From Methanobacteriota archaeon (lineage in GTDB: Archaea > Thermoplasmatota > Poseidoniia > Poseidoniales > Thalassarchaeaceae), in contig JAERSV010000080.1 of assembly GCA_016845345.1 (NCBI GenBank), forward strand, positions 8,750 through 72,749: a DNA stretch of 64,000 nt, read 5' to 3'. Below are positions 11,595 through 61,811 of the stretch, one piece after another (the stretch's first letter is position 1; each line of letters starts with the position of its first letter). Under the pieces are notes generated by a model, which saw only the letters and a program-made list of their open reading frames with translations, searched no databases and was not told the DNA's origin. The position numbers and the translations under genes were made by a program.

Positions 11595-11993
11595 TTATTC
11601 CTCTTCATTATCAGTTGAATCTGTTTTTTTGAGGTGTGCCCAAAGTACGTAGGGGAGACTCCAGAAGGCACCTCCAAGTGTACCGAAGAGAATTAGAGTT
11701 GCCAATATTTCTAAACTACCATTCGGGGCGCCGAATGAAGCGCCTAATATTGGCAAAAAGAAAGTTAGAAATGAGACTGGAATCAATTGCTTTAGACTAG
11801 GGTCACAACAACCAATTTGTTGGGATATTTTTTTCACAGCAAATGCGGAGGCGAAAATCATTCCAAAGAAAACCACTAGAGCGGCTTCAAAGGATGGGGG
11901 TTCAAGTCCTACCTTTATCATAATAAGGGCTACAAAAGTTGCTAACATTGCTCCTGTTCCCGCACCAGCAAAAATAATGTCTCTTTTCCTCAT
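11595..11993 (-). CDS. Small hypothetical membrane protein (~4 TM)
   Basis: The hydrophobic profile is clear. There is no motif. Confidence 0.5.
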   Translation of the reverse strand: MRKRDIIFAGAGTGAMLATFVALIMIKVGLEPPSFEAALVVFFGMIFASAFAVKKISQQIGCCDPSLKQLIPVSFLTFFLPILGASFGAPNGSLEILATLILFGTLGGAFWSLPYVLWAHLKKTDSTDNEEE

Positions 11994-12117
11994 GATTCCT
12001 AATCTCCCTTTTTAGAGCACACCCATTATTGACAATATATGTATCTGTTCACGAACTCGGTGTTTAACCGGCGGAATCATCAATGGCTGCTCTCCCCCGT
12101 TGGAAGGGTGAGAGCAG

Positions 12118-16035: not shown

Positions 16036-18489
16036 TCAGGCCCTATCATCAGAATCTGATGTTGAATCGGAAGTGCCGCTCGCTTCATCTCCTTCATCTT
16101 CACGCGGCTCATCTTCAACATCCTCAGGCTCAGACTCTTCTCCATCAGCCACAATGTAATCATCTTCCCAGCCCCAATAACTTGGGGCATCAATTCTTTC
16201 TGGAAGGCTAACAGAGTCTGAAAGCGCCATCGTACTGTAATTAGTTACAGTCACGCCTTCAGCAGAGAACGCATAGACATAATCACCCATGAAGATGGAG
16301 CGCCTAACATTTGGACTACCGTAGTAATAGGATTCTCTTAGCCCATTTTCTCCATTGTAGAAATCGGAGTGGTCTATTGTGCCATACTTGGTAAGTGTGT
16401 TATTCTCAGCATCAACCTTCACTAGAATCAATTGTGTGACATACTCGTAACCACTGAAAGAGTATTTTCGTCCATCAATTGTCACTTCATCATAGGTGTA
16501 TCGGTAGGTCGAGAGAGGTATTGCCAACAATTCAGCAGGCGCCCAGTAGGTGAATGCCTTATGCTCATAGGTCGCCTCACTGTACGACCATGACCAACTC
16601 CACCAATCCTCACTGTTGCGGTCAATAGGAGCAAGTTGCAAAGCCGATGCCAAGGTTGGGTCAGAGAAGTTCGAGACATCAAACAATGAAATCTGGGTGT
16701 TACCCCAATCCAATCCCAATCCATCTTCGCCACCAGCAATGCCGATTGTCAAGAGATGGTCTTCACTTAGTGGGTGAATGTAGGTTGACACGCCTGAAAC
16801 CTCTAACTCACCAATCACTTGTGGATTAGTTGGGTCTGAAAGGTCAATTGTCCAAAGAGGGTCAATATTTCTGAATGTGACAAGGTATCCCTTCTCACCA
16901 ATGAAACGGCAAGACCAGATGGTCTCTCCTGTAGCAATGCCACCAACATGGCCTATCTGTAGTAATTCATCACCACCGTTCTCATCTGGTGCAAGAACGT
17001 AGACGTCGTTAGTTGGGCCAGCCCAATCTTCGCCATCTAGCCACCAGCGGCCCCAAATGTCCTGAGTTGTAGCAACTCGGATGGTGCCGTTGTATTCTGA
17101 AAGTGAGAACTGGTCGTTGACAGTTCCAGTAACTCGACCTGAGCCGATGTAGGTCGTTATTCCACCATCTGAGATATCAAAAGCATGAATGTTTGTTGCC
17201 TCCACAAAATCATCATTTCGCCAGTACCACCACCAATCATTGGCTGGCTCTGCAAGAATTAGCATATCTTCGCTTGCATAGACTTCAACCCATGAGGATG
17301 AAACGTGGTCTAGTTCGTATTCAATCATGTCGCCAAACAATTCAATTGTCATTACAGTAGTAAATCCGCGTCCAACTGAATCTGCTGCCGCAGAAAATTC
17401 TTCGCAAGTTGCACTAACTGTTGATTGTTCAACAACTGTTCCATCAGCCATTCGCTCATGCATTCTTGGAGAGAAATCTGCTAATGTTAGGCCTGCAATA
17501 ACTTCTAGATTGTAGGCGATTGCCTCATCTACACTTGCATTCCAAATATCTTGGCGTTCTGGGTCGTTGTGGTCAATCTCCCAGTAATTATCAGGAAGAG
17601 TTGGGTAAGTGCGCAATCCTTGTAATTGCGCGTATGAATGCGTCACAGCACGAAGTGTGCCATCAACTAATCTTGCAGTTTGATAAGAACCGTCAAGGTA
17701 TAGTTCGCGGTCAATTTGTGGGTCTGAACGGTCAGTTATATTCATCACTGTGAACTTCACTTTGTTGCTGTATCGATAGTATGAGTAAATGCTGTCACCC
17801 TCAGCATTATCTGCCATCATAGCAAGGCGGATAGGATCATCAGAAGGTAGATTCCAATAGGAAACATAAGAGATGATCACGAGTTGATTTCCATTAACAA
17901 GCATCTGCATTGGAGAACCCTCCAATGCCGTACTAGATTCCAGAGTAACGTTGCCAAACTCAGGCACTCCCAAAATTACCAACTGACCGTTGTTAATCAT
18001 GTAGATATGATATCCATCGGTTTTGAGGAAGTCTGCTTCATCAACACCTTCTTCCTGATTATTTGTCTCTGAATATTCGCCTTCTCGGTCTCCAGACCCA
18101 GAAGTGCTTGGTGGCGATGAACTATCCATTGTTTGAGTACTATCTCCGTCACTTGCCATTTCAGCAGCTGCAGTATCGACCATTATGTCATCTTCCATAA
18201 AGCCACCACGGAATCCCCAAGAATTCCAATGCCAGTATGATGCCTGGTCAAGGCCAACCATCATTTCTTCAGCAAGAGAGTTTCGTAGATCTTCTTCAAG
18301 TTCTGCACACCCATCATATTGGTTCAAAACGGGAGAAGAACGTACCCGATTACCGAGGAGTAACTCGGGAGAAATCCAGTCAATATTCTCTTCATTTTCA
18401 TTATCTATGGGATTTTCTAATGTTCCCAAACAGCCAGCCAAAAGCATTGAAGCCAGCACAATCAAAACCATAACAGGTGTTCTTGCCAT
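16036..18489 (-). CDS. Large secreted protein (817 aa) with lipobox-like signal, Trp-rich beta-propeller-like body and acidic C-terminal tail
   Basis: The signal is MARTPVMVLIVLASMLLAGCLG. The C-terminus is EDEPREDEGDEASGTSDSTSDSDDRA. The 21-nt shared promoter motif lies 31 nt upstream. Confidence 0.55.
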   Translation of the reverse strand: MARTPVMVLIVLASMLLAGCLGTLENPIDNENEENIDWISPELLLGNRVRSSPVLNQYDGCAELEEDLRNSLAEEMMVGLDQASYWHWNSWGFRGGFMEDDIMVDTAAAEMASDGDSTQTMDSSSPPSTSGSGDREGEYSETNNQEEGVDEADFLKTDGYHIYMINNGQLVILGVPEFGNVTLESSTALEGSPMQMLVNGNQLVIISYVSYWNLPSDDPIRLAMMADNAEGDSIYSYYRYSNKVKFTVMNITDRSDPQIDRELYLDGSYQTARLVDGTLRAVTHSYAQLQGLRTYPTLPDNYWEIDHNDPERQDIWNASVDEAIAYNLEVIAGLTLADFSPRMHERMADGTVVEQSTVSATCEEFSAAADSVGRGFTTVMTIELFGDMIEYELDHVSSSWVEVYASEDMLILAEPANDWWWYWRNDDFVEATNIHAFDISDGGITTYIGSGRVTGTVNDQFSLSEYNGTIRVATTQDIWGRWWLDGEDWAGPTNDVYVLAPDENGGDELLQIGHVGGIATGETIWSCRFIGEKGYLVTFRNIDPLWTIDLSDPTNPQVIGELEVSGVSTYIHPLSEDHLLTIGIAGGEDGLGLDWGNTQISLFDVSNFSDPTLASALQLAPIDRNSEDWWSWSWSYSEATYEHKAFTYWAPAELLAIPLSTYRYTYDEVTIDGRKYSFSGYEYVTQLILVKVDAENNTLTKYGTIDHSDFYNGENGLRESYYYGSPNVRRSIFMGDYVYAFSAEGVTVTNYSTMALSDSVSLPERIDAPSYWGWEDDYIVADGEESEPEDVEDEPREDEGDEASGTSDSTSDSDDRA

Positions 18490-18520
18490 GATTACGCCAC
18501 GATAGTCCCTACATTAAGGG

Positions 18521-18541
18521 AGTTGGTTCAACGATTTTACC
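18521..18541 (-). promoter_or_regulatory. Promoter/operator motif GGTAAAATCGTTGAACCAACT (minus-strand sense). It combines a BRE/TATA-like GGTAAAAT with the palindrome GTTGAACCAAC.
   Basis: It lies 31 nt upstream of the ATG at 18489. A near-identical copy is at 19719..19739. Confidence 0.5.
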
Positions 18542-18795
18542 TTTAGGAACGAACAATCCTCTACAAAAACAATATTTACGGAGGATAATTTGACTTCGCT
18601 TCATCGATATCCGTTTTGAAAACATAGACTATTTTGTAAGTTGTTCAGGTTGTTTCTTATTACTGAATCTGTAAACATACTCAGTCTCTGTATTGACTGT
18701 TTAATTATGCAAACCACACACAAATTCTAGTGCCTAAGGTCGGCTTCTGTTAACCTTGAGTAACACTGTCATGACAAATTCGGGCTTTGGAAGAT

Positions 18796-19683
18796 TCAAG
18801 ACAAAGCAGATTCACGGACAACAGATAGTTGTCCATGACCAAGGTCTGAAAGTTTCCAGGTCGCCTTACGACCTTTTCCATCCTTATCGATTAACTCTCG
18901 CTCTTGCAGTTGTTTCAGGTGGTAAGCCATCAATTGTTTTGACGCTTCTAACTTTGTTCTGATTTCAACAGTTGAAATCCCCAAATCCCCTGCGCTGGAG
19001 AGTACCTCCAAAATTGCTCTTTGCATACCGGTAACGGGACTCTCAAGCTCATACAATTTCTTAGGGTCAATTCCCGTAATTGCATATCTTCTACGCCTAC
19101 CATCTTGCCAAGAAATCAACTCTCCAGCCTTTTCTAATTGGTGCAAATGGTACGCGGTTACGCCATTGGCTAGTGCGAGAGCATCGCGAAGTGCAGAGAA
19201 GTGTATCCCAGGGTGTGCCTCAACATAACCCTCAATTCGGCCGCGTGTTTGAACATCTTTCTCTTTACCATGAAGTTTCGCCAAAAGTGGACCGGCTAGA
19301 GCCAAGACAAGACCTGTCTTCACCCCCTCACTGACTATCACACCTACTCCAAGTGAGCCGACCAATCCAATGGTTACAAGGGCTAGAAGTAGCGCGGCAA
19401 TGATTGAGGTGAATCCTACAGTTGCTATTTCGCCTGCTCCATCCGCTGCAAGCGGTTCATCATTTCTAGAATCGGCTGATTCTGGTGTAGCACCACTGCT
19501 ATCATCCTCCTCGGCGCTATCATCTGTAGCGGCCATTTCTGCAACAAAATTTTCTTCTTCGTCGACTTGTTGTTCCTCTTGAGGCGTGAAATAATCAATC
19601 AGCAAAGCGCTGTTGTAAGCTGTTACAAGAAGGCCTAACACCGCTATTAGCGCTAACAGCCGGTATCCAACAACTCGGTTCAT
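18796..19683 (-). CDS. Membrane-tethered transcription regulator with two N-terminal-region TM helices, an acidic linker and tandem winged-HTH domains
   Basis: The TM helices are LLALIAVLGLLVTAY and IIAALLLALVTIGLVG. Two wHTH-like segments are GIHFSALRDALALANGVTAYHLHQLEKAGELISWQDGRRRRY and ISTVEIRTKLEASKQLMAYHLKQLQERELIDKDGKGRKATW. The start was chosen at the MNRVV Met (19683) because the TATA-like motif sits only 19 nt from the upstream Met at 19713. Confidence 0.5.
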   Translation of the reverse strand: MNRVVGYRLLALIAVLGLLVTAYNSALLIDYFTPQEEQQVDEEENFVAEMAATDDSAEEDDSSGATPESADSRNDEPLAADGAGEIATVGFTSIIAALLLALVTIGLVGSLGVGVIVSEGVKTGLVLALAGPLLAKLHGKEKDVQTRGRIEGYVEAHPGIHFSALRDALALANGVTAYHLHQLEKAGELISWQDGRRRRYAITGIDPKKLYELESPVTGMQRAILEVLSSAGDLGISTVEIRTKLEASKQLMAYHLKQLQERELIDKDGKGRKATWKLSDLGHGQLSVVRESALS

Positions 19684-19718
19684 GTTGACTCCTGAGAACA
19701 GGATTGCACCCATAACGA

Positions 19719-19739
19719 AGTTGGTTCAATGATTTTACC
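19719..19739 (-). promoter_or_regulatory. Second copy of the shared promoter/operator motif (GGTAAAATCATTGAACCAACT)
   Basis: It matches 18521..18541 at 20 of 21 positions and lies 35 nt upstream of the ATG at 19683. Confidence 0.5.
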
Positions 19740-19879: not shown

Positions 19880-21802
19880 TCATTCAACTTCATTTGATTT
19901 ATTGCCATTAGCAATCGCTATTATTAGAACTAAAATTACTAAAATTAGTGGTACTGTATATGTGATAATATCAGCACTTCCGGAGGTATCTGATGGTTCG
20001 TTATTACCACTTGTAACCTCTTTATTTGCTAAACTGCATTCCATTTCATCGAGCACTTGCTCGGAAAAGAACACATTGCACTGGATTTTCTCAATTTCAG
20101 TGTTTCTAAGAATTATATCGGCTAAAGTTGTGCTATCTATCTGGTCTTGGATATCCTCCATATCTGAAAATTCCGAACCATAATACAGCCTGTCACCATC
20201 TCTCAATCTTGTGAATTGCTCTTTGATTATGACATGCATCGTCTCTCCGAGAGCTGAATTTTCGAGGTGTTCTTCTGCCAACATTCCAATCAATGCATCA
20301 ACACTGTCAACATCAGGATATGTGTTGTTCAAGGCTTCAATAGTTGTATTGTCGCTTGTGAAATCACTCCAATTCGTATATCGTGCTAATCCAAATGCTT
20401 CGCGCACGGTGTTGAAATCAGGTACCCCGTGGTCTCGTCCTCGTTGAGTATCAATGGCACACAAATCCATACCCCCTGCACCTGGAGGGCCAAACATTTG
20501 GTTTCGTAAATCGTCGACGAACATCAAATCATTTTCTGGTTGAACATTGAAGGCAAGACCGCGCAATATAGGCCCAATCCCACCGCCCTCGGTAATTGGT
20601 GTAACATCAAAGAATCCCTCCCTAAGTGCGAGATGACCCCCTGTTGCCGTCATTCGTGACTCATTCAGTCTTAACATCGAACTTCCAATTTGACTATGAC
20701 CCATGCGGAATGCAACTGTTGCAAACTCATTTGAAATGGCTGGGTTAATTGTCGAATCATATCCACTGTAGGAATCTAATTCAATTCCCAAAGATGGCAA
20801 GAATTCATTGTAGGTGATTGACTCAATCAATCCGATATTTATGTGCCGTGCATATTGGTAAATCTGCTCATCAGACCAGTCAGGATTCCTATCCAAGATT
20901 TCACCAGCCAAACGGTTGTGTTCCCTAACAAATAAAATATGCATAGAAAGTAATGCTACGTGCTCATTTGCTCTCGCATCTCCTGCCACGAATGAATTAG
21001 AGAAATTGAAGCCAGCAAATGACATGCCTGGTGTTGTAGGGTCTTCTGCATAATTTGCTTGGGGCAATAAATCACCTTCATCAAAATCACTAACTTTCAT
21101 CCTACCATCTTGGTATTCTCGCAACCAATTCGCTCGTCCTTCATCACTGCCATATACTACTGAACCATCAATCCAAGTTGAAATCGTGTTAGGATGTTCT
21201 CTCTGATTTAGTGGGTCTCCGTCCCCCGTGCCCTCAGCCACTAATGAACGGAAAAATCTCATTTGTAAACCGCCAGGGAATCCCATCCATTCATCGTTTT
21301 CTGAAATTGGAATATATGCTGTATCCGGTTGATCTTGATTTGGTGTCCTACCATCTTGAGTTGTCGTATGGTCAATATCATGGGTGATGAACTGTCCCCA
21401 CAGCCAGTTGTAGTCAGACAATCCTCGTGAATCAGGGTGTGACTGATCTTCTTGACAAAGGGAATTGCTAATTTCACGTGGGTTCGGAATATCCTCACGG
21501 TCCCAAAAAGTGAGGTTTTCACCATCAGTTGTAGGATATCTCTCTGCGAATCGAGAAAGTTCCGACCCGACTACCCCATATTCAGGGTGTTCGATATTTA
21601 CCCCAGAACCATCATATCCATACTGGGCCCCAGCATCGATGACAGATTCATCTGTTGAGGCATAGGTCGTAGCACCATCCTCCTTTTCAATACTTGAAGC
21701 CGACACTGTTGCCAATCCTAACAACATGAAAAGTGCAACTGTTAATGATGCAAATCTTTTGCGATTTGAGACTTCGTTATTTGATTCAAAATTTCTTGGC
21801 AT
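19880..21802 (-). CDS. Animal-haem-peroxidase (peroxidase-cyclooxygenase superfamily) homologue, secreted with a C-terminal TM anchor. The catalytic motifs are intact.
   Basis: It has the distal GQFITHDIDH, the Ca-binding loop WIDGSVVYGS, GDARANEH (catalytic Arg and Glu), SMHILFVREHNRLA, and QRGRDHGVPDFN (putative proximal His). The signal peptide is LTVALFMLLGLATVSASS and the C-terminal helix is VPLILVILVLIIAIA. Confidence 0.75.
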   Translation of the reverse strand: MPRNFESNNEVSNRKRFASLTVALFMLLGLATVSASSIEKEDGATTYASTDESVIDAGAQYGYDGSGVNIEHPEYGVVGSELSRFAERYPTTDGENLTFWDREDIPNPREISNSLCQEDQSHPDSRGLSDYNWLWGQFITHDIDHTTTQDGRTPNQDQPDTAYIPISENDEWMGFPGGLQMRFFRSLVAEGTGDGDPLNQREHPNTISTWIDGSVVYGSDEGRANWLREYQDGRMKVSDFDEGDLLPQANYAEDPTTPGMSFAGFNFSNSFVAGDARANEHVALLSMHILFVREHNRLAGEILDRNPDWSDEQIYQYARHINIGLIESITYNEFLPSLGIELDSYSGYDSTINPAISNEFATVAFRMGHSQIGSSMLRLNESRMTATGGHLALREGFFDVTPITEGGGIGPILRGLAFNVQPENDLMFVDDLRNQMFGPPGAGGMDLCAIDTQRGRDHGVPDFNTVREAFGLARYTNWSDFTSDNTTIEALNNTYPDVDSVDALIGMLAEEHLENSALGETMHVIIKEQFTRLRDGDRLYYGSEFSDMEDIQDQIDSTTLADIILRNTEIEKIQCNVFFSEQVLDEMECSLANKEVTSGNNEPSDTSGSADIITYTVPLILVILVLIIAIANGNKSNEVE

Positions 21803-21804
21803 TT

Positions 21805-23715
21805 TTATTCCTCCTCGATTTCTTTTTCCTCTAGGTTCTCTATTTCTCTTCCTGAAAATACTACTACCGCTATCAACATTAATGCTATCATTATCCCTAC
21901 ATAGGTGCTCGTTTTAGTTGAACTTACCCCATCATTTCCTCCTGAAATGAGCGGAGCATCTGAATTTGCCAGATGGCACTGAAAACTGCTGGCATCGCTC
22001 TCAGCAAAGAATACATCGCATTGAATCGATTCAATTCCTGTATTTCGGAGGATAATATCAGACAACCGCAGAGAATTGAACTCACTGGTTAACGAATTTA
22101 ACTCAGCATCATTCTCATACCAGAATCTATCTGCATCACGCAGTCTTTGGAACTGGTCCAATACCAACATCTGTTGGGTTTCCCCATAGATTGAATATTC
22201 GAGTCTATCTTCTGCCATTACACCGATATATGCATCGATGCTATCAACATCTAGATACGCTGATGCTAATTTTTGTTGTGAATCAACATCTGAACTGATA
22301 TCACTCCAATTCGTGACCCTCTCAAGCCCAAGACCTTCTCTTAATGAATTGTAATCTGTGAGTCCACGGTCACGGCCTCGTTGGATGTCCATTGCACAAT
22401 CATCCATCCAGCCACCCCACATTGCCCCACTCATCAAGTTGCGAAGACTGGGGATAACTGCCAAATCCATTTCTCTTTGAGTATCGTATGCAGCACCTCG
22501 AATCGTGGTATCAATTCCACCAACCTCAATTAGTGAAGATGAGGTCCAAAAGCCATCCCTCAAATCCAAATGTCCGACTTCAGTTTCGTTGAGTCCTTCA
22601 TCAAATTGCAGCCAACCATCAGCCATCTGACTACCTGTAGCAAATCCTGCTAACAAGATGTATTCATTACTTAATTGTGGATTAATAGTTGAATTATAAC
22701 CGGTATAATCATCCAAATTAATTCCAATGGATGGGAGATATTCATTGTATGTAATCGCTTGAATTTCAGCCTGAACTAATTTCTTCGTCCGCTGAAATAC
22801 CTGTTCATCATTCCAATCAGAATTGCGCTCGCTCACACCATCTGCAATTCGGTTGTGTTCCCTGATGAACAAGACTTGCAGTGAAGTGAGACCAATGTGC
22901 TCTAGGTTCCTTGAATCACCGGTAAAAAATTGGAGATTGGGGTCATCCCCCGACGCACTCTCTACATATTCAGTTATGCGAGCAGGTACCATGTCCCAAC
23001 CTCGAACGTCGGTTACTTTTAGACGCCCCCCCTCACCACTGCGAAGATAATCTTGAAATTCTACACTAAAGGAATATATTGAGCCCCCATCAATCCAACT
23101 ACTCACCTCATTCGGATACTCCCGAGGATTTTCTTCACCATCTCCTGTACCAGAAATGAATTCAGTTCGTAAATATTTGATTCGTGAATCTTCTACACCT
23201 CCTGGATTCATAATTCCATCATCAATTGGAATCAGAATGTGTGCCTCTTCCAGTCCACCTTCATGAGAAGAGTCTTGATGAGTGGTGAGTTGCATATCGT
23301 TGTTGATAAATTCAGACCAAAGTACATTCATGTTTGAAAGACCAAGTGGACTTGGTGTAACACTTGTTTCTACACAAACTTGATTCGAAATAATTCGTGG
23401 ATTTTCATATTCGGGGTGCGCCATTTCAGAGATATTGTCATCAAAAGATGGTGAAGTTAATCGATTGATTTGGCTGTCAACCGCACCCCAATCGTTGTTA
23501 GCAATATTATTGCCACTACCATCATTATTTCTCATTTCTTGCGGTGCCATTTCATCATCAGATGCGAACAAACTCGACTCTTCTTTAGCAACTGGTGTTG
23601 CGGCTGTTGGAAGCGATAACGAGACCGATAAGAGCAAAATTGCCATTATTTGTGAGAAGAAGCGAGTTGCAGTGAAGCCTCGAGAACGCTTTTGCAACCT
23701 ATAGGGGGTAGACAT
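21805..23715 (-). CDS. Paralogous peroxidase-family protein with degenerate active site (putative pseudo-peroxidase), secreted with a C-terminal TM anchor
   Basis: It aligns to the upstream paralogue (GDSRNLEH, LFIREHNRIA), but the distal His is replaced (SEFINNDMQ), the Ca loop is degenerate (WIDGGSIYSFS) and RDHG has become RDRG. It lies 2 nt downstream of the first paralogue. Confidence 0.65.
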   Translation of the reverse strand: MSTPYRLQKRSRGFTATRFFSQIMAILLLSVSLSLPTAATPVAKEESSLFASDDEMAPQEMRNNDGSGNNIANNDWGAVDSQINRLTSPSFDDNISEMAHPEYENPRIISNQVCVETSVTPSPLGLSNMNVLWSEFINNDMQLTTHQDSSHEGGLEEAHILIPIDDGIMNPGGVEDSRIKYLRTEFISGTGDGEENPREYPNEVSSWIDGGSIYSFSVEFQDYLRSGEGGRLKVTDVRGWDMVPARITEYVESASGDDPNLQFFTGDSRNLEHIGLTSLQVLFIREHNRIADGVSERNSDWNDEQVFQRTKKLVQAEIQAITYNEYLPSIGINLDDYTGYNSTINPQLSNEYILLAGFATGSQMADGWLQFDEGLNETEVGHLDLRDGFWTSSSLIEVGGIDTTIRGAAYDTQREMDLAVIPSLRNLMSGAMWGGWMDDCAMDIQRGRDRGLTDYNSLREGLGLERVTNWSDISSDVDSQQKLASAYLDVDSIDAYIGVMAEDRLEYSIYGETQQMLVLDQFQRLRDADRFWYENDAELNSLTSEFNSLRLSDIILRNTGIESIQCDVFFAESDASSFQCHLANSDAPLISGGNDGVSSTKTSTYVGIMIALMLIAVVVFSGREIENLEEKEIEEE

Positions 23716-23872
23716 CTCTCAACCACTTTTTACGAGTAGTTCCTCGGGTTAGAACCTTTTTCTATGGAATGAACTTAAATTTTTTGAACTGTACGATTTA
23801 ATTGTGTGGGGATGTTTCATAGGTAAAATCTCTGTGGTTAATGTTGCCGAAGTACGCGCGAGGGGTTCCATA

Positions 23873-27234: not shown

Positions 27235-28599
27235 TCACAGATTGCCATTACAGACTGGACAATACTGCCAACTTTGTTCTACCCCAATCCCACAACGAGA
27301 GCAATTTTTTCCCGACTGAATGTTGTGGTGAATTGGTTGGGCTTGTGCTTGTGGAGCATGTGGTCCGCCACTTACCAAATCTGAAACTGAATCAAGGGCA
27401 GATTGCTCAGGATGGTTCGAAGGAGCCGCTGGCCACCCAGTATCAGGCATCTGTGGCGGTTCTTGAGATTGCAACCCTATTGCCGGGGCTGATGGAGAAC
27501 TTGAACCGATTGGAGCGCGCTTTGGTGTGACGGCTTGAGAGGGAGGTTGCACTGGTTCTGTCGGTGTGGGTTGTGCAATTTGTGGTTCTACAACAGGCTC
27601 AGGCTGTTCTACTACAGGTGGTGATGGTGAAATACCCTCTTGAAGAGTTGAAACTGGTTCTGCATCCACTGGTGAAACCGGCACATCTATATCTGCAGCA
27701 GCAGAAAACTGAGAAGCGAATGCATCGCTAGCATCAACCTGCTTAACCTCTGTTGGTCGATTTGATTCAATTTCAAGTGCTGGTTCCTTTGCAATAACCA
27801 TGGGTTTAGTTACCGCTTCTTCAGTCGGTTTTTGAGATACCACATTTACCGGTTGAGGAGATGTTGGTGCTGGCGCTGGCGCTACTACTGGCGCAGGCGA
27901 AGGCACCATGGCTGGCGCTGGTGATGGCACAGACGCAGGCGCTGGACCAACTTGCGGTGTTGGCGTCGGCGCTACGACAGGAGCCGGAGCTGGCTGAGTT
28001 GCATGAGTTGGTGCACCAAGACATGAAATTGGCGTCACGGACCCCGTCTTGGCCTGCTCAATTGCGATATTCAATTCTTGAGATAATTGTAACAAGACTG
28101 CTTTGTTGGCGGCCGGTGACGCGACCAATCCTGCATATTGTGAAACATAATGTCCGAGTAATGGTAATCCACCGATTAAATGCCCCAGTCCGAACATTTT
28201 GAGTAGAGAAAAGATATCTGTTAGTGATTCAAGTGCATTCATCTCGTGTTCGACAAAACCTGGGTGTACTCCTACGTTACCCTCCGAATCTTCTCCCCCA
28301 AGGAAAAACCTGAGTGGATCGCTGAGAGAAACTAGACCAAAAGGCCCTGTCAGGAGATAATATATCTCGCCACCCTCACAACTAAGTCTTTGAGCAGCCT
28401 CTTCAAAACCAAATTCTGGTTGTAAAACCAAATCAATAGCGATTGAGAAAAACTCACCCATTCCATTTATTGGGTCTGTCTGATTAAGGTGCAAGATAAT
28501 GTCAGCCGAATCTGTTACACCGAAGTATGCTGCAGCTTCGTCCACAGCAATTCCTTGCGGCAATGAGGCTCCTTCAACCTCAACCTCGCTTGGATTCAT
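27235..28599 (-). CDS. Hypothetical protein with N-terminal globular domain, ~200-aa Pro/Ala/Val-rich linker and C-terminal CxxC...CxxC zinc ribbon
   Basis: It has PAPAPVVAPTPTPQVGPAPASVPSPAPA repeats and the C-terminus CSRCGIGVEQSWQYCPVCNGNL. Its start lies 27 nt after the stop of the giant gene upstream, on the same strand. Confidence 0.5.
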   Translation of the reverse strand: MNPSEVEVEGASLPQGIAVDEAAAYFGVTDSADIILHLNQTDPINGMGEFFSIAIDLVLQPEFGFEEAAQRLSCEGGEIYYLLTGPFGLVSLSDPLRFFLGGEDSEGNVGVHPGFVEHEMNALESLTDIFSLLKMFGLGHLIGGLPLLGHYVSQYAGLVASPAANKAVLLQLSQELNIAIEQAKTGSVTPISCLGAPTHATQPAPAPVVAPTPTPQVGPAPASVPSPAPAMVPSPAPVVAPAPAPTSPQPVNVVSQKPTEEAVTKPMVIAKEPALEIESNRPTEVKQVDASDAFASQFSAAADIDVPVSPVDAEPVSTLQEGISPSPPVVEQPEPVVEPQIAQPTPTEPVQPPSQAVTPKRAPIGSSSPSAPAIGLQSQEPPQMPDTGWPAAPSNHPEQSALDSVSDLVSGGPHAPQAQAQPIHHNIQSGKNCSRCGIGVEQSWQYCPVCNGNL

Positions 28600-28625: not shown

Positions 28626-31600
28626 TCAATTTAATCCTGCTTCATTGACAATATATCTAGATTGTTTTGCATTCCAACCACTGGTTTGCAATTGACGAAG
28701 AATATTTCTTTCTGCTTCACCTGAGGCAATTGATTCACGGGCTTCACCAAGGGACTTTTCATAGTTTGCAGAATCTCTTGGAGTGAAAAGGTCCTCCCAC
28801 TTTTTCGGTGCCGTGGACTTTTTCGATTTCCTAGCTCCTTCCTCTGATTTGGTTCCACTTGGCTTCTTTCGTGTGGACCTTGTCTTTACATTCTCTGGCT
28901 TTGGTGCACCCGCAACCTTGCGAACTTTGCGCGAAGAAGCATCAGCCGGAGGCGCATCATCTGAAACTACGGTCCTGCGTGTTTTCTTGGCTCGAGGTGC
29001 GGGACTTGATGGGCTACTTCCTGCACGGCTTTGAGGCCCTGCACGGCCGGGAGGGCCGGCCGCTCGGCCCGGCGGCCCTCTTGAACCACCTGCGCTACTT
29101 GGGCCTCCTGCTTGAGGACCTCTAGAAGGCCCTCCACCTCCACGACTTGGAGGGGCTGCTCGTGCAGGAGGTGCACCTCGACTAGGTTGATTTCCTCCTA
29201 AGCCAGAAAAGTCCTGTCTTGCCGCAGGTGCGTTCCAACCACCTTGAGATCTTGAAGCAAATATATCATCATCGTCATCTTCTTCAAATTCATCATACAT
29301 ATCATCGTCATCATCATCCCAATCATCACCACCACGGATGATTCTAATGACAACCAATGAGATGATGACTAGAGCCAGTAAAGCCCCTATACCGGCACCG
29401 ATCATTTTCAGCGGCAATGTTGAAGATTCAGTTGAACCGTACCATTCATCGTACCATTCACAAGATTGATATTCTTCAGGAACAATCATTCCTGGACTTA
29501 ATGATGGATTGTAAAAATCCTCCCATTTTGTACATTCATCTACAGCATTACCATCGGCACCGGTTGCGGCTGGACATCCTACTCCTTGGACGCCATCTAT
29601 AACTCCGGGAGTAAATGGACATTCATCGCCTTCAAAACCTGAAATATTGTCACCAAACCCATCTCCATCGTTGTCTTTCCATTGGGTTGGGTCATTGATG
29701 AAAGCGTCAGCCCCTTCTTCAAAACCCCAGCCTGCCGCGGGGTCTGACCAACCATCACCGTCTGTATCAGGGCAACCCCAACGGTCACCGTTAGGTGGGC
29801 CTGTTGAATTACCTGCAACATTTGTACAACTATCACCTTGGAAACCACTCAATTCGTTTCCAAAGCCATCCATATCTAAGTCACCCCACTGGGTAGACTC
29901 AAGAGGAAATTTATCTACGTCATCAAAGAAGCCGTCGCCGTCTGTATCAATGTCATTTCGTGGACAACCGACTTCATTCACTTCGGCACCAGCAATAGTC
30001 CCAGCACATTCATCTAAGGCGTTTGAAACACCATCATTATCCTCATCCAGTTGATATGTAGCACATCCTGTTACATTATTGAAAAACTCATCAATTCGAA
30101 GCAGATCTGTGTCTGGGCATTCATCCTCAATGTCAGGGACACCATCCTCATCAGTATCAAGCGTCAATTGGTCCTGACTACAACCGTTTACATCAACCTC
30201 CGCAAGCGCAGTCGTGTTAGCACAACGGTCTAATGAATTTGAGACACCATCACCGTCGTCATCCTTTTGATTTTCAGAACAACCCTTCCATTGACCAGAG
30301 GTATCAACCACCTCCCCAATTGTAGTATTACCACAAATGTCGTCATCATCGATGATACCATCGCCATCAGAATCCTCTGCAGGAAGGGGGCATCCGCGTC
30401 CACCATCCCCATTCGCATAGCCAAATTGTTGGGGGCAAAAATCTCCATTTGTACGATTTGTGAAATCTCCATAGCCATCGCCATCGGAATCTCTCCATTG
30501 TTCTGGATTAGAGCTATTTGAATCGGCGTTGCCCGTCGGGTGTGCACTCTCTAAAGTATCTGGATTAGACCAGCCATCCCCATCATCATCTAGACATCCA
30601 AATCTATCAACACTTGAGTTACCCCAAGAAACTGGACAAGAATCGGGAGTAGTGCCTGTGGGATTATCACCAAAACCATCTAGATCGGTGTCATTCCACT
30701 GGGTTGGGTCCTCATTGAAAGCATCTTGCCGCCAAGCATCAGTCGTGGTATTATCTCCATAACCATCCCCATCTTTGTCATGCCATTGTTGAGAACAATT
30801 GGCGATACTACCACACGGTTCACCCGCATTTCCATTTCCACCCGGCCAATTATCAGCGCATCCATTTCGGCCATCTGAATCTATTGCATTACATTGGCTA
30901 CGATTGTAAATCCATGTGCTTTCTTGCGCATTTTGGGCTATGTGAGGGTCTGACCAACCATCACCATCTGTATCTAAACAGCCACCACGGTCATGAGCAG
31001 AAAAACCCTGTAACTCAGGGCACTGGTCACCTGTCCAATCAATATTGAACCAATCAGGTTGATTATCACCATCAACATCATGGCCGTTGAATAAACGTAG
31101 GGTTTCGTTGGCAAATTGGAAATTATGGTTATCTCCCCAACCATCATTATCCAAGTCCTCCCATTGGTTTCCATTCAAGGGATAAATATCAGTTGAAGAA
31201 CTCCCACAGCAATCAGGTCCGTGGTTATCATAATGGCCATCTTCATCTGTGTCTCTCTGTTGATGCCAATTCACAGGGTTTTGGTCGCCATCTGTACTCC
31301 AACCATCACCATCAGAGTCTGCACAGCCTTTTCTGTCAACCCATGAGTTACCCCTAGTGTATAGACAAATATCAACAGCGTCTGCCCATCCATCTAGGTC
31401 TTGGTCACTACAGCCGAAGTATCCCCATCTACTTCCTCTATCAAGTAAATCAGTACCACTGTTAATGCACTGGTCGGGGGTAGGACCACCCGGATTATCT
31501 CCGTAGCCGTCAGCATCAGCATCATTCCACTGACCACCAACACGAGGGACCTCATCCCATGGTAGAGGCACGAAATCGCGGTCCCAATCATTGTAGATGC

Positions 31601-34600
31601 GATAACTTGTCAGACGGTTATTTGAATTCAGATCAAAGTGGCATGCTACAACTCTAATTACACCTGTAGCATCAGTTTCCATATCAACTCCGCAAATGTT
31701 ACCGGCTGCTGTTGCGGTATACACGGGCTCAACCGTTGAACCATGAATTATTGCCAATGTCATTCGCTCTACGCCGGGGCCACCATCAAATGCAATCCAA
31801 GGCACTCCTTCACCAGTACTTCCTGCACTAAACAAAACATTTGAGAAATAACCAATTGACAAAGCCACACAATTGGCCGTACTAATTGTACAGAGTTTTG
31901 CATCAGAGGTTTGGGTTTGTTCAGTAAACAACACCATGTTTTGGTTCAGAATATGTGACTTCAAATCTGATGTTGGAGTCAATGACGAAGTCATCAATGA
32001 TGTGACATTGCTTTCATTTACTGACAATACTTCTGCCACACCAGAATCATTTGCAAGGGCAACCTGCAAGGTTCCGTCGCTCAGGCAAGCAACATCATTG
32101 TCACTTTGGTATCCCCAAATTGAGAAGGTTGTAACAGTTCCACCCGCATCAATGTAACTTAGAGTCGTTTCGTTTGTACTAACAACTGAACTAACTAAGA
32201 CGCCAGTTCCATTATCAAGTTGACAACCAGAACTGGCACCATATTCTTCGGAGCCATTTGAATTTGTACCACTAATGTTCCAACTGTCGCTCACACTTGG
32301 TGATTGATGAGTTAAAGCATGTGTACTTGAAATTCCAGCCCCAAGCGAACTATTGGTTACTACTGTAGAAGTCAAGAATCCAGAATCTGTTTCCGCTCTC
32401 AATTCAACATCTGAAACTGTGGCATTTTGGTAAGATGTTGTGAAAATTAAACTCTGCTCATCATCAATAACCAAATCAATATCCATTCGATTATGTGTTG
32501 CAAGAGGATGCTGTGTTGTCAGAATAGTGTGAGCACTTTGCTCAACAAAATTATTATTGTCATCAAGTACAATTGTTTTTCCTGACCTCGTCACAACCAT
32601 TGATGCAATCTCGGAATATGAGATTCCTTGCCATTCCTCAGCAGAGTTTGTGACTGCATTTGGCCTTTCTAAATGCCGTGTTTGATTTAAAACACCTGAT
32701 TTCAAAAATAAGTGAAACCTTCCAGAATCATCCAAATGAAGGTCGGCATTATCAATGGCAGCACCCCCAGCAATCTGAATATCAGAATACTCATTATTTC
32801 GCTTTTCAATTTGAATGACTACACCTGCAGAGTTGCCATCCATGTCCTTATCAAGAGATGTAACGATGATTTCAAATTGACCATCTCCATCCGTATCTCC
32901 CCCACCATTTACAGTCCTTCCAAGGTGTTGGCCACTCACACCTTCCATGAGAATTGAGTTGACCCCTTGACGTAAAAGTTGAGAATTATCTGCGAAGAAG
33001 TACTCGACTTTCCCTGCACCAACGCTGTTAATTCCTATTGAAGAAATTGCAATTTCAGAAAGGCCGTCATCATTGATATCTCCGATCGCTGACAATGCGC
33101 TTCCAAATGCTTGACTTGATTCTGTACCGACCAACTCTTGTGCTGGGTTATCTGGAAGACCATTAGCCGAGCCACGTAGAACTGTTACTTTGCCCAATGC
33201 TAAATTGTCGTAAAGCGGTTCACTATATGCAAAATCATCATACCCATCTTCATTGACATCGCCTATTCCAAGTACAGAGTACCCAAGTAATGTGTTAGTT
33301 GTTGTAGTTGTCCAGTAATTATCTATTGACATCACTCCTGTTTGTGACCCTTTGTAAACCTCCACTCTACCATTTCCTGTAAGGTCGGAAAACGAGCCCG
33401 CTGCCCCCATCGCAATGTCATCAAATCCATCACCATTGATGTCACCAATTCCAGCTAGGGACCAACCTTGAATTACGTTCGACCAATATCCTCTGGTGTA
33501 CCAATCGTGATCTGTATCTGGCCCATTTGCTGAGCCCAAATAAAGGTAGACTTTTCCTTCACCACCTGATTGTGTAAATCCAGTTGCGGCAACAAGAATG
33601 TCGGCGTAACTGTCGTTATTGACATCGCCAGCTGATGAAACTGTTCCACCGAATTTATCTCCTCCTCCTTCACCTGAGTCGGACCAATTTGCAGTCGAAT
33701 AAGTGCGGTTTCCACCATAGAATAAGTAAGATGTTCCTGTTGCAAATCCTAGACTATTAGTTGCGCCAATAGCGCCAATCAGAAGATCTGAACAGCCATC
33801 ACCATTGACATCACCTGCATTGGCTATTGATGAGCCAAATCTATCTCCGCCGGCAGTTCCTGTAAGATTGTAATCAGGGTTAGATGAAAGTCCCATCCCT
33901 GAGCCCCAAAAGATGTCAACAGCACCTGTTTCAGAATTAGCAGCCGGCCGGCTAACAATCAAATCATCAGTTCCGTCACAATCAAAATCAAGGTCATTGA
34001 TGGCTTGAGTTGCATATTCATCACTGACTGCACCAGTCGTCAAAGTATCAATTGATGGTGAAAGACGACCATTTTCTTGTCCTGTCAAATCACGTACAAT
34101 GGTTAACTCAGAAGAATTTGAAGACCCGTAAACATACTGGATGTTGCCGGTTGATGGGTCCTCAGCAAATGACATGGCTGGCCCAAGGCCTTGCCCGGCA
34201 GTCAGAGATTTGAGATCCCAATTTCCATCTGTGTCTAAAACCCCATGAATTATTTGTGTGGTATCTAGATTTTTGTAGAATATGTGTAGAGCATCATCAG
34301 CGTCAATAAATGCATCATATTGCGTACCTACCCTTGTGCCCACTAACAAATCTTCGTGGGTCCACCACGTTCCATATGATGACAGATGAAGTCCATTGTC
34401 GGAATCTAGCCAAAGGACATTCTCAGCCCCGTCGGAATCAAGCAATATAGAAATTTGAGCGACTTGGCTCTCATTTTGAATAGTTCTCATATTCCAAAGT
34501 CCACTTGCTCTTTGATATGCCACTCTGAGGAATCCTGATTCATTTGTGTATGCAACATGTATCAATTCACGCTCATCAACGATGATTGAACATTTCTTGC

Positions 34601-60923: not shown

Positions 60924-61811
60924 TCACTCCTCAGAATCCACTTCTTGAATATGCGCTATCGAACTATTTTCAAGTTCATCCTCTTTTAATTCAATAACAT
61001 TTCTTAAGATAATTCCGTGATGTGCTCTTAATTTCCTGGCGCGCATCGCCTTGCTAATTTCATTCTCAAAATCATGCAACTTTGTTAAGTCATCTATATC
61101 TTTGAGTTCAGCGTCAAATCTACTGAATGTTCTAAATCTAAAATACCAAATTCCCAAATAAATCGGAACGAGTCCGATCGGAATAATTAATTCTGAACTG
61201 AGAGCGGAAATTAACCAAGATAATGAAATCTCAATTCCATCATCGCTATATTCGGCAACTAAACCTGTACCCGACACATAAAACCAGCCTGTATTACCTC
61301 CATACATGGTAAACGGGGTCACGCTTTCATCTAAGGTATCACAACCCCTATCTAATTCAATTTGGTCTGACCAACCATCGTTGTCATCATCATCATCTAA
61401 TACATCAGGAATTGTGTCCCAATCAGAATCTGGTGGTACATCGTTAAGGTCGAAAATATCGTACTTCTTAAGGGCGGTAGAAGAAGCTAACTCCAAATCA
61501 TTTGTGATTCCATCACCGTCTATATCATCATCAAGTGTATCCGGAATCCCGTCACTATCCGTATCGTAACAACCATTCATATGGCGATATGAATAACCCT
61601 CTGAATTAGGGCAATCATCGGATATATTGAGACCAGGTTGGTCTGCATATCCATCGCCATCTGAATCCGACCATGCTTCGGAATTATTTGGATAAGCATC
61701 ATCTTCATCATTGTAACCATCACCGTCTGAATCATCCTGAGCATCGACAATTGGTAATGTGAGTAAAATGAAGGAAAGAAAAATGCAGAACCATGCTACA
61801 ACCCTATTCAT
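60924..61811 (-). CDS. Small TSP3-repeat secreted protein with C-terminal membrane segment
   Basis: The signal is FCIFLSFILLTLPIVDA and the repeats are DSDGDGYNDEDDAYPNN, DSDGDGYADQPG, DTDSDGIPD and DIDGDGITND. Confidence 0.6.
   Translation of the reverse strand: MNRVVAWFCIFLSFILLTLPIVDAQDDSDGDGYNDEDDAYPNNSEAWSDSDGDGYADQPGLNISDDCPNSEGYSYRHMNGCYDTDSDGIPDTLDDDIDGDGITNDLELASSTALKKYDIFDLNDVPPDSDWDTIPDVLDDDDDNDGWSDQIELDRGCDTLDESVTPFTMYGGNTGWFYVSGTGLVAEYSDDGIEISLSWLISALSSELIIPIGLVPIYLGIWYFRFRTFSRFDAELKDIDDLTKLHDFENEISKAMRARKLRAHHGIILRNVIELKEDELENSSIAHIQEVDSEE

Follow-up and report, generated by a model that had tools for sequence, protein, structure and literature searches.

A candidate operator shared by the genes for a membrane-tethered tandem winged-helix regulator and a neighbouring beta-propeller lipoprotein is conserved across Poseidoniales

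Results

The window, which is the whole 64-kb stretch of DNA analysed here and derives from a Poseidoniales (Marine Group II) archaeon, contains two adjacent minus-strand genes that encode a predicted membrane-tethered tandem winged-helix (wHTH) regulator (18796..19683; 295 aa) and a secreted beta-propeller lipoprotein (16036..18489; 817 aa). The first-pass annotation had described the regulator as a protein with two transmembrane (TM) segments and two wHTH domains, and the profile matches and hydrophobic segments agree on this architecture. The predicted layout is an N-in TM1, an acidic extracytoplasmic loop, TM2, a conserved juxtamembrane helix, wHTH1 (PF24266), and wHTH2 (HTH_20/MarR_2). 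Hydrophobic segments span approximately residues 4-30 and 85-121, and the AF2 model places helices at residues 3-32 and 89-137. The loop between the segments contains 19 D/E and 1 K/R in 60 residues and is of low complexity and unconserved in sequence. The positively charged N-terminal tail and a K/R-rich stretch after TM2 predict that the HTH domains lie inside the cell. This predicted combination of TM segments and cytoplasmic DNA-binding domains is that of a membrane-bound one-component transcription factor. No paralogue of the regulator or of the propeller protein was found in the window.

The first wHTH domain (residues 155-216, corresponding to positions 2-63 of the 70 in the profile) matched PF24266 (HTH_HVO_0163_N) at 68.2 bits compared to a cut-off of 31, and this family was present in all 120 of the regulator homologues listed. 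The second domain (residues 227-277) matched HTH_20 (36.0 versus a cut-off of 27) and MarR_2 (31.1 versus 27), was modelled with a pLDDT of ≈92, and gave Foldseek matches to ArsR, CzrA, SmtB, and MepR, which, together with ZitR, were the closest single-domain structural matches. The two domains are 39% identical to each other over 41 aa, and hardly any variation is seen across the order in their recognition helices, LANGVTAHHL and SRQLMSYHLKQL. The full-length AF2 model, based on a 32-sequence alignment, was poor (pLDDT 62.6; pTM 0.37) and gave only generic tandem-WH and MarR/ArsR matches in Foldseek (TM 0.2-0.26). The only match in a sequence search against solved structures was a weak one to 5duk (E 0.002). 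The regulator has no cysteine, which excludes thiolate-based metal or redox sensing by this protein, and its score against the NCBIfam metalloregulator model NF033788 (36.8 bits) falls below the cut-off of 55, placing it outside the ArsR/SmtB metalloregulators as that model defines them.

The neighbouring gene had been read as encoding a secreted surface protein, and its product indeed carries an LLAGC lipobox in its N-terminus (MARTPVMVLIVLASMLLAGC), a PF09826 (Beta_propel) domain that scored 393.9 bits compared to a cut-off of 22.4, and an acidic C-terminal tail. Among the orthologues listed, nearly all have an SGC or AGC lipobox; the sequence of L036 ends in SGF. A further proposal, that the adjacent haem peroxidase locus shares this regulation, did not survive. 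This locus has no copy of the motif described below, its synteny is not conserved, and the peroxidase genes occur only in the five closest relatives. The peroxidase genes are a recent insertion that lies outside the module.

The window has exactly two copies of the motif GGTAAAATC[G/A]TTGAACCAACT, on the minus strand at 18521-18541 and 19719-19739, and the distances of 31 nt to ATG 18489 and 35 nt to ATG 19683 that had been reported for these copies were confirmed. A search with GGTAAAATCRTTGAACCAACT that allowed up to 3 mismatches returned only these same two sites in the window, compared to a chance expectation of 0.01 (100 shuffles), and none of the shuffles gave two or more matches. We refer to the copy that precedes the regulator gene (GGTAAAATCATTGAACCAACT; 19719..19739) as candidate operator R and to the copy that precedes the lipoprotein gene (GGTAAAATCGTTGAACCAACT; 18521..18541) as candidate operator P. 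The conserved core of R, GTAAAATCATTGAACCAA, lies at 19738-19721 (-55 to -38 from ATG 19683), and that of P at 18540-18523 (-51 to -34 from ATG 18489). Beyond the motif and an AT-rich box, the upstream regions of the two genes show no likeness.

The motif is conserved in a set of 65 other Poseidoniales (Marine Group II) genomes. In 62 of 62 assessable loci the element precedes the regulator start by 50-55 nt, and in all 38 loci that hold the propeller gene it lies 51-52 nt upstream of the lipoprotein gene. The association persists where the amino-acid identity of the regulator has fallen to 36-45%, and it is seen in both families of the order, where the regulator-propeller gene pair is syntenic and the remaining neighbours vary. 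A motif-independent alignment of 31 propeller promoters, anchored at the start codon, recovered three conserved features, namely the candidate operator, a box at -29 to -22, and a T at -10; the flanks outside these features are unconserved.

The orthologous sites imply a different anatomy from the GTTG-N3-CAAC palindrome that had been described as part of the motif. The sole base that varies between the two window copies is the first G of this palindrome, which is consequently intact only at 18522-18532; at 19720-19730 the sequence is ATTG...CAAC. Of 46 unique sites, only 3 keep all four of its base pairs, and motif positions 9-10 are the least conserved. As a general promoter palindrome, ATTGWCAAT was not significantly enriched (4 matches versus 1.8 expected). 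Instead, the conserved core is (G)GTMAAAyC-N2-T-KW-ACCAA, of about 18-20 bp, which forms an imperfect dyad (GGTAAA-N5-TTTACC) whose best symmetry register is centred on C8. The half-sites are 11 bp, or one helical turn, apart, a spacing that is typical of wHTH dimers. The dyad is perfect in L045 (GGTAAA-ATCAC-TTTACC) and partial at most sites: pair 4-12 is retained in 50% of sites, pair 3-13 in 30%, and pair 0-16 in 37%.

Each candidate operator is followed after 1-3 nt by an AT-rich box. In the lipoprotein promoter, the candidate TATA box CTTAATGTA (18510..18518, minus strand; -29 to -21 from ATG 18489) begins 2 nt downstream of operator P. In the regulator promoter, the candidate TATA box CGTTATGG (19710..19717, minus strand) begins 1 nt downstream of operator R and includes an in-frame ATG at 19713 that gene callers at times take as the start. 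This upstream ATG is missing from L007, L016, and L019, and the regulator start is the one that gives 295 aa and not the annotated 305 aa. The sequence GGTTATG is kept in the regulator promoters of Thalassarchaeaceae; in other clades, TATTATA, TTGAAAAC, CTAATGTA, or TTGATAGG stands at the same position. In the 31 propeller promoters the box reads tT.Atagc at -29 to -22. Position by position, 71% of sites have T at -28, 84% have W at -25, and 67% have A at -24. Further downstream, W is found at -10 in 86% of sites and a pyrimidine at -1 in 81 of 83 (98%). Given the AT-rich box, W at -10, pyrimidine at -1, fixed operator-start spacing of 51-52 nt across an unconserved spacer, and frequent lack of a Shine-Dalgarno (SD)-like 4-mer (present in 28 and absent from 55 of 83 sites), the pattern suggests that the mRNAs of both genes are leaderless, with the AT-rich box as TATA box and the motif upstream of BRE/TATA. 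In the spacer of 254 nt between the genes, an oligo-T tract, TTGTTTTTG (18564..18572, minus strand), lies 23 nt upstream of operator P and is possibly an archaeal terminator of the regulator transcript.

The first-pass annotation had instead taken GGTAAAAT, which lies 44-51 nt from the ATG, as the BRE/TATA element. GGTAAAAT occurs 7 times in the window, where 2.5 copies are expected; beyond the two motif copies, three are upstream of genes (1792, 1819, and 23822) and two are intragenic. If GGTAAAAT is the BRE/TATA element, transcription would start ≈25 nt downstream, in CTTAATGTA or the GTTATGG box, the leader would be ≈20 nt long, and the regulator would be a classical archaeal repressor that covers the TATA box and the TATA-to-TSS interval and represses both its own gene and that of the lipoprotein. 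Several observations fit this arrangement. GTAAAAT is AT-rich and preceded by W-W at -2/-1, and a copy of GGTAAAATC stands 51 nt before ATG 23873 of an FG-GAP gene. Elsewhere in the window, promoters carry a TATA box ≈45-55 nt ahead of the ATG together with SD leaders, and many other genes of the source genome have SD leaders of 20-50 nt. The window copies and the 28 sites counted above, including orthologous promoters with GGTGG or GGAG, have an SD-like GGAG, GGTGG, or GGGAG 7-12 nt ahead of the ATG, and the leaderless model does not account for the G that 75% of sites have at -8. The SD leaders elsewhere and the SD-like sequences at some sites thus allow for a leadered mRNA with GTAAAAT as its TATA box. 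Positional k-mer histograms upstream of ORFs were noisy and dominated by the two gene families, and clear only in a general SD peak at -14 to -9.

Nevertheless, we regard the repressor-over-TATA arrangement as less likely. In orthologues the left box changes to GTCCAATC, GTACAATC, GTCAAAGC, or GACAAATC, none of them a good TBP site, and the GTTG-N3-CAAC palindrome is unconserved. An unconserved 20-nt leader would not be expected to hold a spacing of exactly 51-52 nt across two families, and W at -10 and the pyrimidine at -1 fit an initiator at the ATG, in agreement with the majority of sites that lack an SD-like sequence. The GGTAAAATC copy before the FG-GAP gene is not conserved in relatives. 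It is more likely that GGTAAAAT is the left half-site of the imperfect dyad and that the TATA function would reside in the separate AT-rich box ≈26 nt before the ATG.

We scanned 621 kb of Poseidoniales DNA with the relaxed pattern GT[AC]AA[AT]-N7-ACCA. Of 108 matches, about 100 fall in the two promoter contexts and about 7 elsewhere, compared to about 5 expected by chance. No third target class was seen in these 621 kb, the scan for regulon members covering 64 kb plus flanks of up to 5 kb. The same site is therefore present in both promoters and rare elsewhere, as for an autoregulated factor. A metagenome-wide scan with GGTAAAATCNNNGAACCAA, a pattern too loose for that collection, yielded among the matches listed nearly all chance hits in unrelated DNA of GC 0.21-0.70; the only Group II archaea among them were L080, L154, L156, and L160, all in the two known contexts. 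Together, these comparisons support the motif as a genuine cis-regulatory element that appears specific to the promoters of the regulator and the neighbouring lipoprotein.

The proposed link between the regulator and the motif is one of association. In the ftsZ-linked arrangement of L020-L042, the motif stands only before the regulator operon, so that it tracks the regulator gene despite a different partner. The two near-invariant recognition helices also appear to match the invariant bases GT.AAA and ACCA of the two half-sites. These features, the 11-bp dyad spacing that fits wHTH dimers, and the absence of a third target class make it very unlikely that the motif is a promoter-specific element read by another factor, such as a transcription factor encoded elsewhere or a specialised TFB/TBP paralogue that recognises an extended promoter, with the regulator gene merely one of its targets, although the motif does abut the BRE position, where TFB contacts DNA. 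Chance, a recent local duplication (a generic repeat) without function, or a 5' UTR RNA element is more improbable still: a single window holds just two copies, separated by 1.2 kb, and the 16-base core pattern recurs by chance in many unrelated metagenome contigs among the matches listed, but these readings are refuted by position-specific conservation in 65 genomes with unconserved flanks and by upstream regions alike only in motif and box, and an RNA element also by single-sequence folding z-scores of +0.07 and -0.25 and an Rfam scan with no family above the gathering score (a sub-threshold U6atac match in the regulator coding sequence had an E of 0.24).

Discussion

Our analysis argues that both copies of the motif are probably operators of the adjacent tandem-wHTH regulator, which would control the lipoprotein gene as well as its own. 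The suggestion of autoregulation plus co-regulation of the neighbour is thereby backed by order-wide comparative genomics, with the link between regulator and motif made by association. In this two-promoter module, the N-terminal TM hairpin would hold the regulator at the membrane with the acidic loop outside, and the membrane-tethered protein would bind both copies. Most likely, each winged helix reads one half-site, so that a single chain acts as an intramolecular pseudo-dimer. Recognition of one half-site by each of two non-identical winged helices would explain both the asymmetry of the site and its constant orientation relative to the gene. The operator, at -51 to -32, would abut the upstream side of BRE/TATA in a leaderless promoter, followed by the weak AT-rich box at approximately -29 to -22, W at -10, and a pyrimidine at -1. 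Binding at this position could activate transcription by recruiting TBP/TFB to the weak TATA box or repress it by occluding BRE/TATA, and we lean only slightly toward activation. A fuller model is more doubtful, namely that this is a single-copy, order-wide envelope-to-promoter module in which the pseudo-dimer on the asymmetric dyad activates leaderless transcription of both genes and the lipoprotein or the acidic loop feeds back on the regulator. If true, this model would set the module apart from both ArnR and the ToxR-type systems of bacteria as a separate class of transmembrane one-component signalling in archaea.

ArnR and ArnR1 of Sulfolobus acidocaldarius are membrane-bound one-component activators of the archaellum operon (PMC6396743). 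They have an N-terminal HTH, HAMP and sensor domains, and two C-terminal TM helices, and the single HTH makes multimerisation necessary (PMC6396743). Their targets are inverted repeats, TCGAC-N5-GTCGA, with a 5-bp spacer, located upstream of BRE/TATA at -43 to -84 (PMC6396743). The regulator described here resembles ArnR as an archaeal factor with two predicted TM helices, a cytoplasmic HTH region, candidate operators that are inverted repeats with a 5-bp spacer, and a putative cell-surface target. Compared by architecture, however, it does not belong with ArnR, since its domains run in the opposite order and neither a HAMP nor a sensor domain is found by Pfam. Unlike in ArnR, the TM hairpin is N-terminal and bears an acidic external loop, two wHTH domains are present per chain, the operator sequence differs, and the host lineage is Poseidoniales instead of Crenarchaeota.

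The bacterial regulators ToxR, CadC, and TcpP combine signal input and DNA binding in one membrane-spanning chain, often with a periplasmic or lipoprotein partner. Each begins with an OmpR-type wHTH, followed by one TM helix and, at the C-terminus, a folded periplasmic sensor. Because input and DNA binding reside in one membrane polypeptide, the promoter DNA must come to the membrane. The Poseidoniales regulator likewise joins a membrane span and a DNA-binding domain in one polypeptide, but it lies outside the ToxR/CadC group. It has no Trans_reg_C match, its wHTH domains are C-terminal, and it has two TM segments. Its topology is the reverse of theirs, and outside the membrane it has an unconserved, low-complexity acidic loop.

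At the domain level, the regulator resembles ArsR/SmtB and MarR proteins. Both wHTH domains match HTH_20, MarR_2, and MarR, and, as for ArsR/MarR dimers, the half-sites in the imperfect inverted repeat of the candidate operator are spaced by one helical turn. Unlike the homodimeric ArsR/SmtB and MarR repressors, the regulator fuses the two domains in one membrane-tethered chain. With HVO_0163 of Haloferax volcanii, which gives PF24266 its name, it shares the N-terminal HTH family, a likeness at the domain level. HVO_0163 has been described as an ArsR-type regulator whose abundance increases under hypochlorite stress (PMC10294847). A search of open-access PubMed Central and bioRxiv for HVO_0163, Poseidoniales promoters or leaderless transcripts, and membrane-anchored archaeal wHTH factors returned only the ArnR papers and this single mention of HVO_0163 in a proteomics study, with no paper on Poseidoniales promoters or leaderless transcripts and none on the present system.

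Marine Group II archaea are uncultured and rank with the most abundant such archaea in the surface ocean. An autoregulated factor that shares its operator with a target gene is a well-known principle, and the value of the finding thus lies in the specific system and organism and not in a new mechanism. The analysis amends the start of the regulator and places the haem peroxidase genes outside the module as a recent insertion. It also provides an in-silico picture of a Poseidoniales promoter in which an AT-rich box lies near -26, W occupies -10, a pyrimidine occupies -1, and the transcript appears to be leaderless. For this order, it gives a precise candidate operator sequence, a candidate regulator, and a conserved putative target gene.

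Conservation of a motif shared by the regulator and propeller promoters

The 64-kb window contains exactly two copies of the 21-mer GGTAAAATC[G/A]TTGAACCAACT, both on the minus strand, and no further site with ≤3 mismatches was found there (shuffle expectation 0.01). One copy (18521-18541; proposed operator P) ends 31 nt from the ATG at 18489 of a beta-propeller lipoprotein gene (propeller), and the other (19719-19739; proposed operator R) ends 35 nt from the ATG at 19683 of the gene for a membrane-tethered tandem winged-helix protein (regulator). The first-pass annotation had reported these two copies before two starts; the observation was borne out, and the motif is far more conserved than could be seen from the window. 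In 65 Poseidoniales genome loci with relatives of the regulator (34-89% identity), a search at ≤5 mismatches found the motif before the regulator and again before the next gene in most loci. The pattern GT[AC]AA[AT]-N7-ACCA gave 108 matches in 621 kb, ≈100 of them in two contexts only and ≈7 elsewhere, compared to ≈5 that would arise by chance given its information content. The site is present in all 38 loci holding the propeller gene and before the regulator in 62 of 62 assessable loci (54 by automatic count, 6 outside the search range of the script, and 2 variants, L032 and L036, read directly; left out were three loci cut by contig ends and one masked with N). Counted from the G of GTMAAA, the start codon lies 51-52 nt away in the propeller gene and 50-55 nt away in the regulator gene.

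When 31 unique propeller upstream regions were aligned by their protein-defined start codons, without recourse to a motif search, only three features were conserved: -51..-32 (GTAAAAtCA.TtaACCAAtT), -29..-22 (tT.Atagc), and a T at -10. The proposal that the regulator controls its own gene and the neighboring surface-protein gene through this motif is supported in outline.

In three loci of a Poseidoniaceae subgroup (L049, L054, and L055), GTAAAATCAATTTACCA precedes the regulator and GTCAAATCAACTCACCA the propeller, swapped compared to the other members, which is consistent with one factor reading both operators. Loci titled Deltaproteobacteria bacterium (L028; JAOMAZ010000006.1) and Yoonia sp. 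(L037; CAXRJJ010000099.1) carry the Poseidoniales regulator and operator and are probably mis-binned or contaminant contigs. A metagenome scan for the motif was swamped by chance matches.

Regulator and propeller proteins

Homologue names and locus titles assign the window to Poseidoniales (Marine Group II), family Thalassarchaeaceae. The regulator (18796-19683(-); 295 aa, without cysteine) begins with a positively charged tail and has hydrophobic segments at residues ≈4-30 and ≈85-121, separated by a 60-residue loop with 19 D/E and 1 K/R. A conserved juxtamembrane stretch (SEGV+TG..LA..GPLLA) is followed by winged helix 1 (PF24266, HTH_HVO_0163_N; 68 bits) and winged helix 2 (HTH_20/MarR_2; 36 and 31 bits), which are detectably related (39% identity over 41 residues) and whose recognition helices are almost invariant across the order. 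ATG 19713 is taken as the regulator start in the ORF listing and by some gene callers, which would make the protein 305 aa long. Because conservation among 32 aligned homologues begins at M-N/D-R-V and L007, L016, and L019 lack the upstream ATG, we place the start at 19683, as the first-pass annotation did. The propeller (16036-18489(-); 817 aa) has an LLAGC lipobox and a PF09826 beta-propeller domain (394 bits). No paralogue of either gene was found in the 64-kb window. HVO_0163, which gave PF24266 its name, increases under hypochlorite stress in Haloferax (PMC10294847), a lead only.

Anatomy of the proposed operator

The motif had been read as a BRE/TATA-like box joined to a GTTG-N3-CAAC palindrome. 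The sole base that differs between the two copies is the first G of this palindrome, so that the 18.5-kb copy alone has it in full and the other has ATTG-N3-CAAC. Of 46 unique sites, only 3 retain all four pairs, and the least conserved operator positions, 9 and 10, form the outer half of its left arm, so that the 4-3-4 anatomy is not supported. The invariant or near-invariant positions are G1, T2, (A/C)3, A4, A5, A6, (T/C)7, C8, T11, A14, C15, C16, A17, and A18, and the best symmetric register is centered on C8, where G1-C15 and T2-A14 are retained in 100% of sites, A5-T11 in 85%, and A4-T12 in 50%. The operator corresponds to an imperfect dyad, GGTAAA-N5-TTTACC, with 11 bp between half-site centers; L045 has the dyad in perfect form, and one clade has a nearly palindromic version (ATGGTCAAAGCCATTTACCAT). 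The near-invariant recognition helices fit the invariant half-site cores. In the most economical reading, a single regulator chain would bind the asymmetric, fixed-orientation dyad through two winged helices that are related yet distinct. The structure model of the regulator was poor (pLDDT 62.6) and could not test single-chain binding.

Probable position of the proposed operator in the promoter

The first-pass assignment of GGTAAAAT as the BRE/TATA element agrees with its AT-richness, with the TATA boxes ≈45-55 nt before the ATG and Shine-Dalgarno leaders of other genes in the window, and with SD-like sequences at some operator-bearing promoters. However, orthologues carry degenerate forms of this box (GTCCAATC, GTCAAAGC, or GACAAATC), and a separate conserved AT-rich box lies ≈26 nt before the ATG. 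Moreover, among 83 unique start-codon-anchored promoters, 98% have a pyrimidine at -1 and 86% an A/T at -10, whereas an SD-like 4-mer occurs in only 28, and the spacing is fixed at 51-52 nt across two families despite 20 nt of unconserved intervening sequence. The evidence against the assignment is the stronger, and the balance tips away from it. Leaderless archaeal promoters have TATA at ≈-26, a proximal element at -10, and a Y-1/R+1 initiator. From the aligned promoters, a leaderless layout with the operator at -51..-32, abutting the BRE, is the probable arrangement; it gives no account of the G at -8 in 75% of sites.

Overlap of the operator with the BRE could be a means of repression. Alternatively, the operator immediately precedes a candidate TATA box that is weak and departs from consensus. 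This position is reminiscent of the sites of archaeal activators, among them the ArnR boxes (-43..-84; PMC6396743), and by this analogy the operator may have an activator-type role.

Several other elements were noted. GTTCTC at -17..-12 of the regulator start (19694-19699(-)) is conserved in Thalassarchaeaceae regulator promoters (L001-L017), not in propeller promoters, and could be an extra half-site (GTTC complements GAAC) or belong to the DNA that melts first. GGTAAAATC recurs at 23822-23830(+), without the right half of the motif but at the distance seen in both motif-bearing promoters, 51 nt upstream of the in-frame ATG 23873 of an FG-GAP/ASPIC gene; relatives have CGCAAAACC, GGTGAAACC, or GGTAATATC instead, and the GTG that the ORF list gives as start (23804) probably lies too far upstream. 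The 13-mer ATATATTGTCAAT (minus-strand reading) at 12028-12040(+) and 28644-28656(+), in the promoters of 11595..11993(-) and 27235..28599(-), and the similar TATAAATGTCAAT before 60924..61811(-) may be a general TATA-plus-downstream element or the site of another regulator. ATTGWCAAT alone was not significantly enriched (4 matches compared to 1.8 expected). Folding found no RNA structure at the two promoters, and no Rfam family exceeded its gathering score; the only match, a sub-threshold U6atac (16.6 compared to 33 bits), lies inside the regulator coding sequence.

Gene neighborhoods

Two tandem animal-haem-peroxidase genes (19880-21802(-) and 21805-23715(-); PF03098, 473 and 386 bits) lie upstream of the regulator. 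Their suggested membership in the module is not supported, because their promoter lacks the motif and the genes are confined to the five closest relatives (L001-L004 and L012). The pair looks like a lineage-specific insertion, since an M29 peptidase gene is the upstream neighbor of the regulator in other Thalassarchaeaceae.

In a second arrangement, found in ≈23 genomes (L020-L042 and L057; e.g., L023 4935-6589), the regulator lies beside ftsZ and radA and is followed after 0-35 nt by a gene for a secreted ≈200-aa protein that has a conserved G-C-x-C-H-G (CxCH) motif and matches no Pfam family. The operator, here close to a perfect palindrome (ATGGTCAAAGCCATTTACCAT), precedes the regulator only. 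None of the isolates contributes more than one of the 65 loci, so the regulator here is apparently not a second copy but the one single-copy gene placed in a different neighborhood, and its partner is once more an exported protein.

The stop codon of the regulator is separated from operator P by a 254-nt non-coding spacer (18542-18795), which resembles the corresponding region in none of the relatives; the regulator-propeller gap is only ≈20-130 nt in L006, L009-L011, and L013-L017. Two close relatives have a PKD-domain gene between regulator and propeller (L002 5921-7657 and L004 6291-8078), with no motif in front, encoding a secreted, C-terminally anchored protein of 578-595 aa. Two very large ORFs of the window, 28626-35024(-) (2132 aa) and 44352-49172(-) (1606 aa), have hydrophobic segments at the N-terminus and presumably encode giant surface proteins.

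The kind of system proposed here, a one-component regulator that is bound to the membrane and acts on its own promoter through a shared operator, is known in principle; this particular form of it is new. It is found in an ecologically important, uncultured lineage, and its predictions are directly testable.
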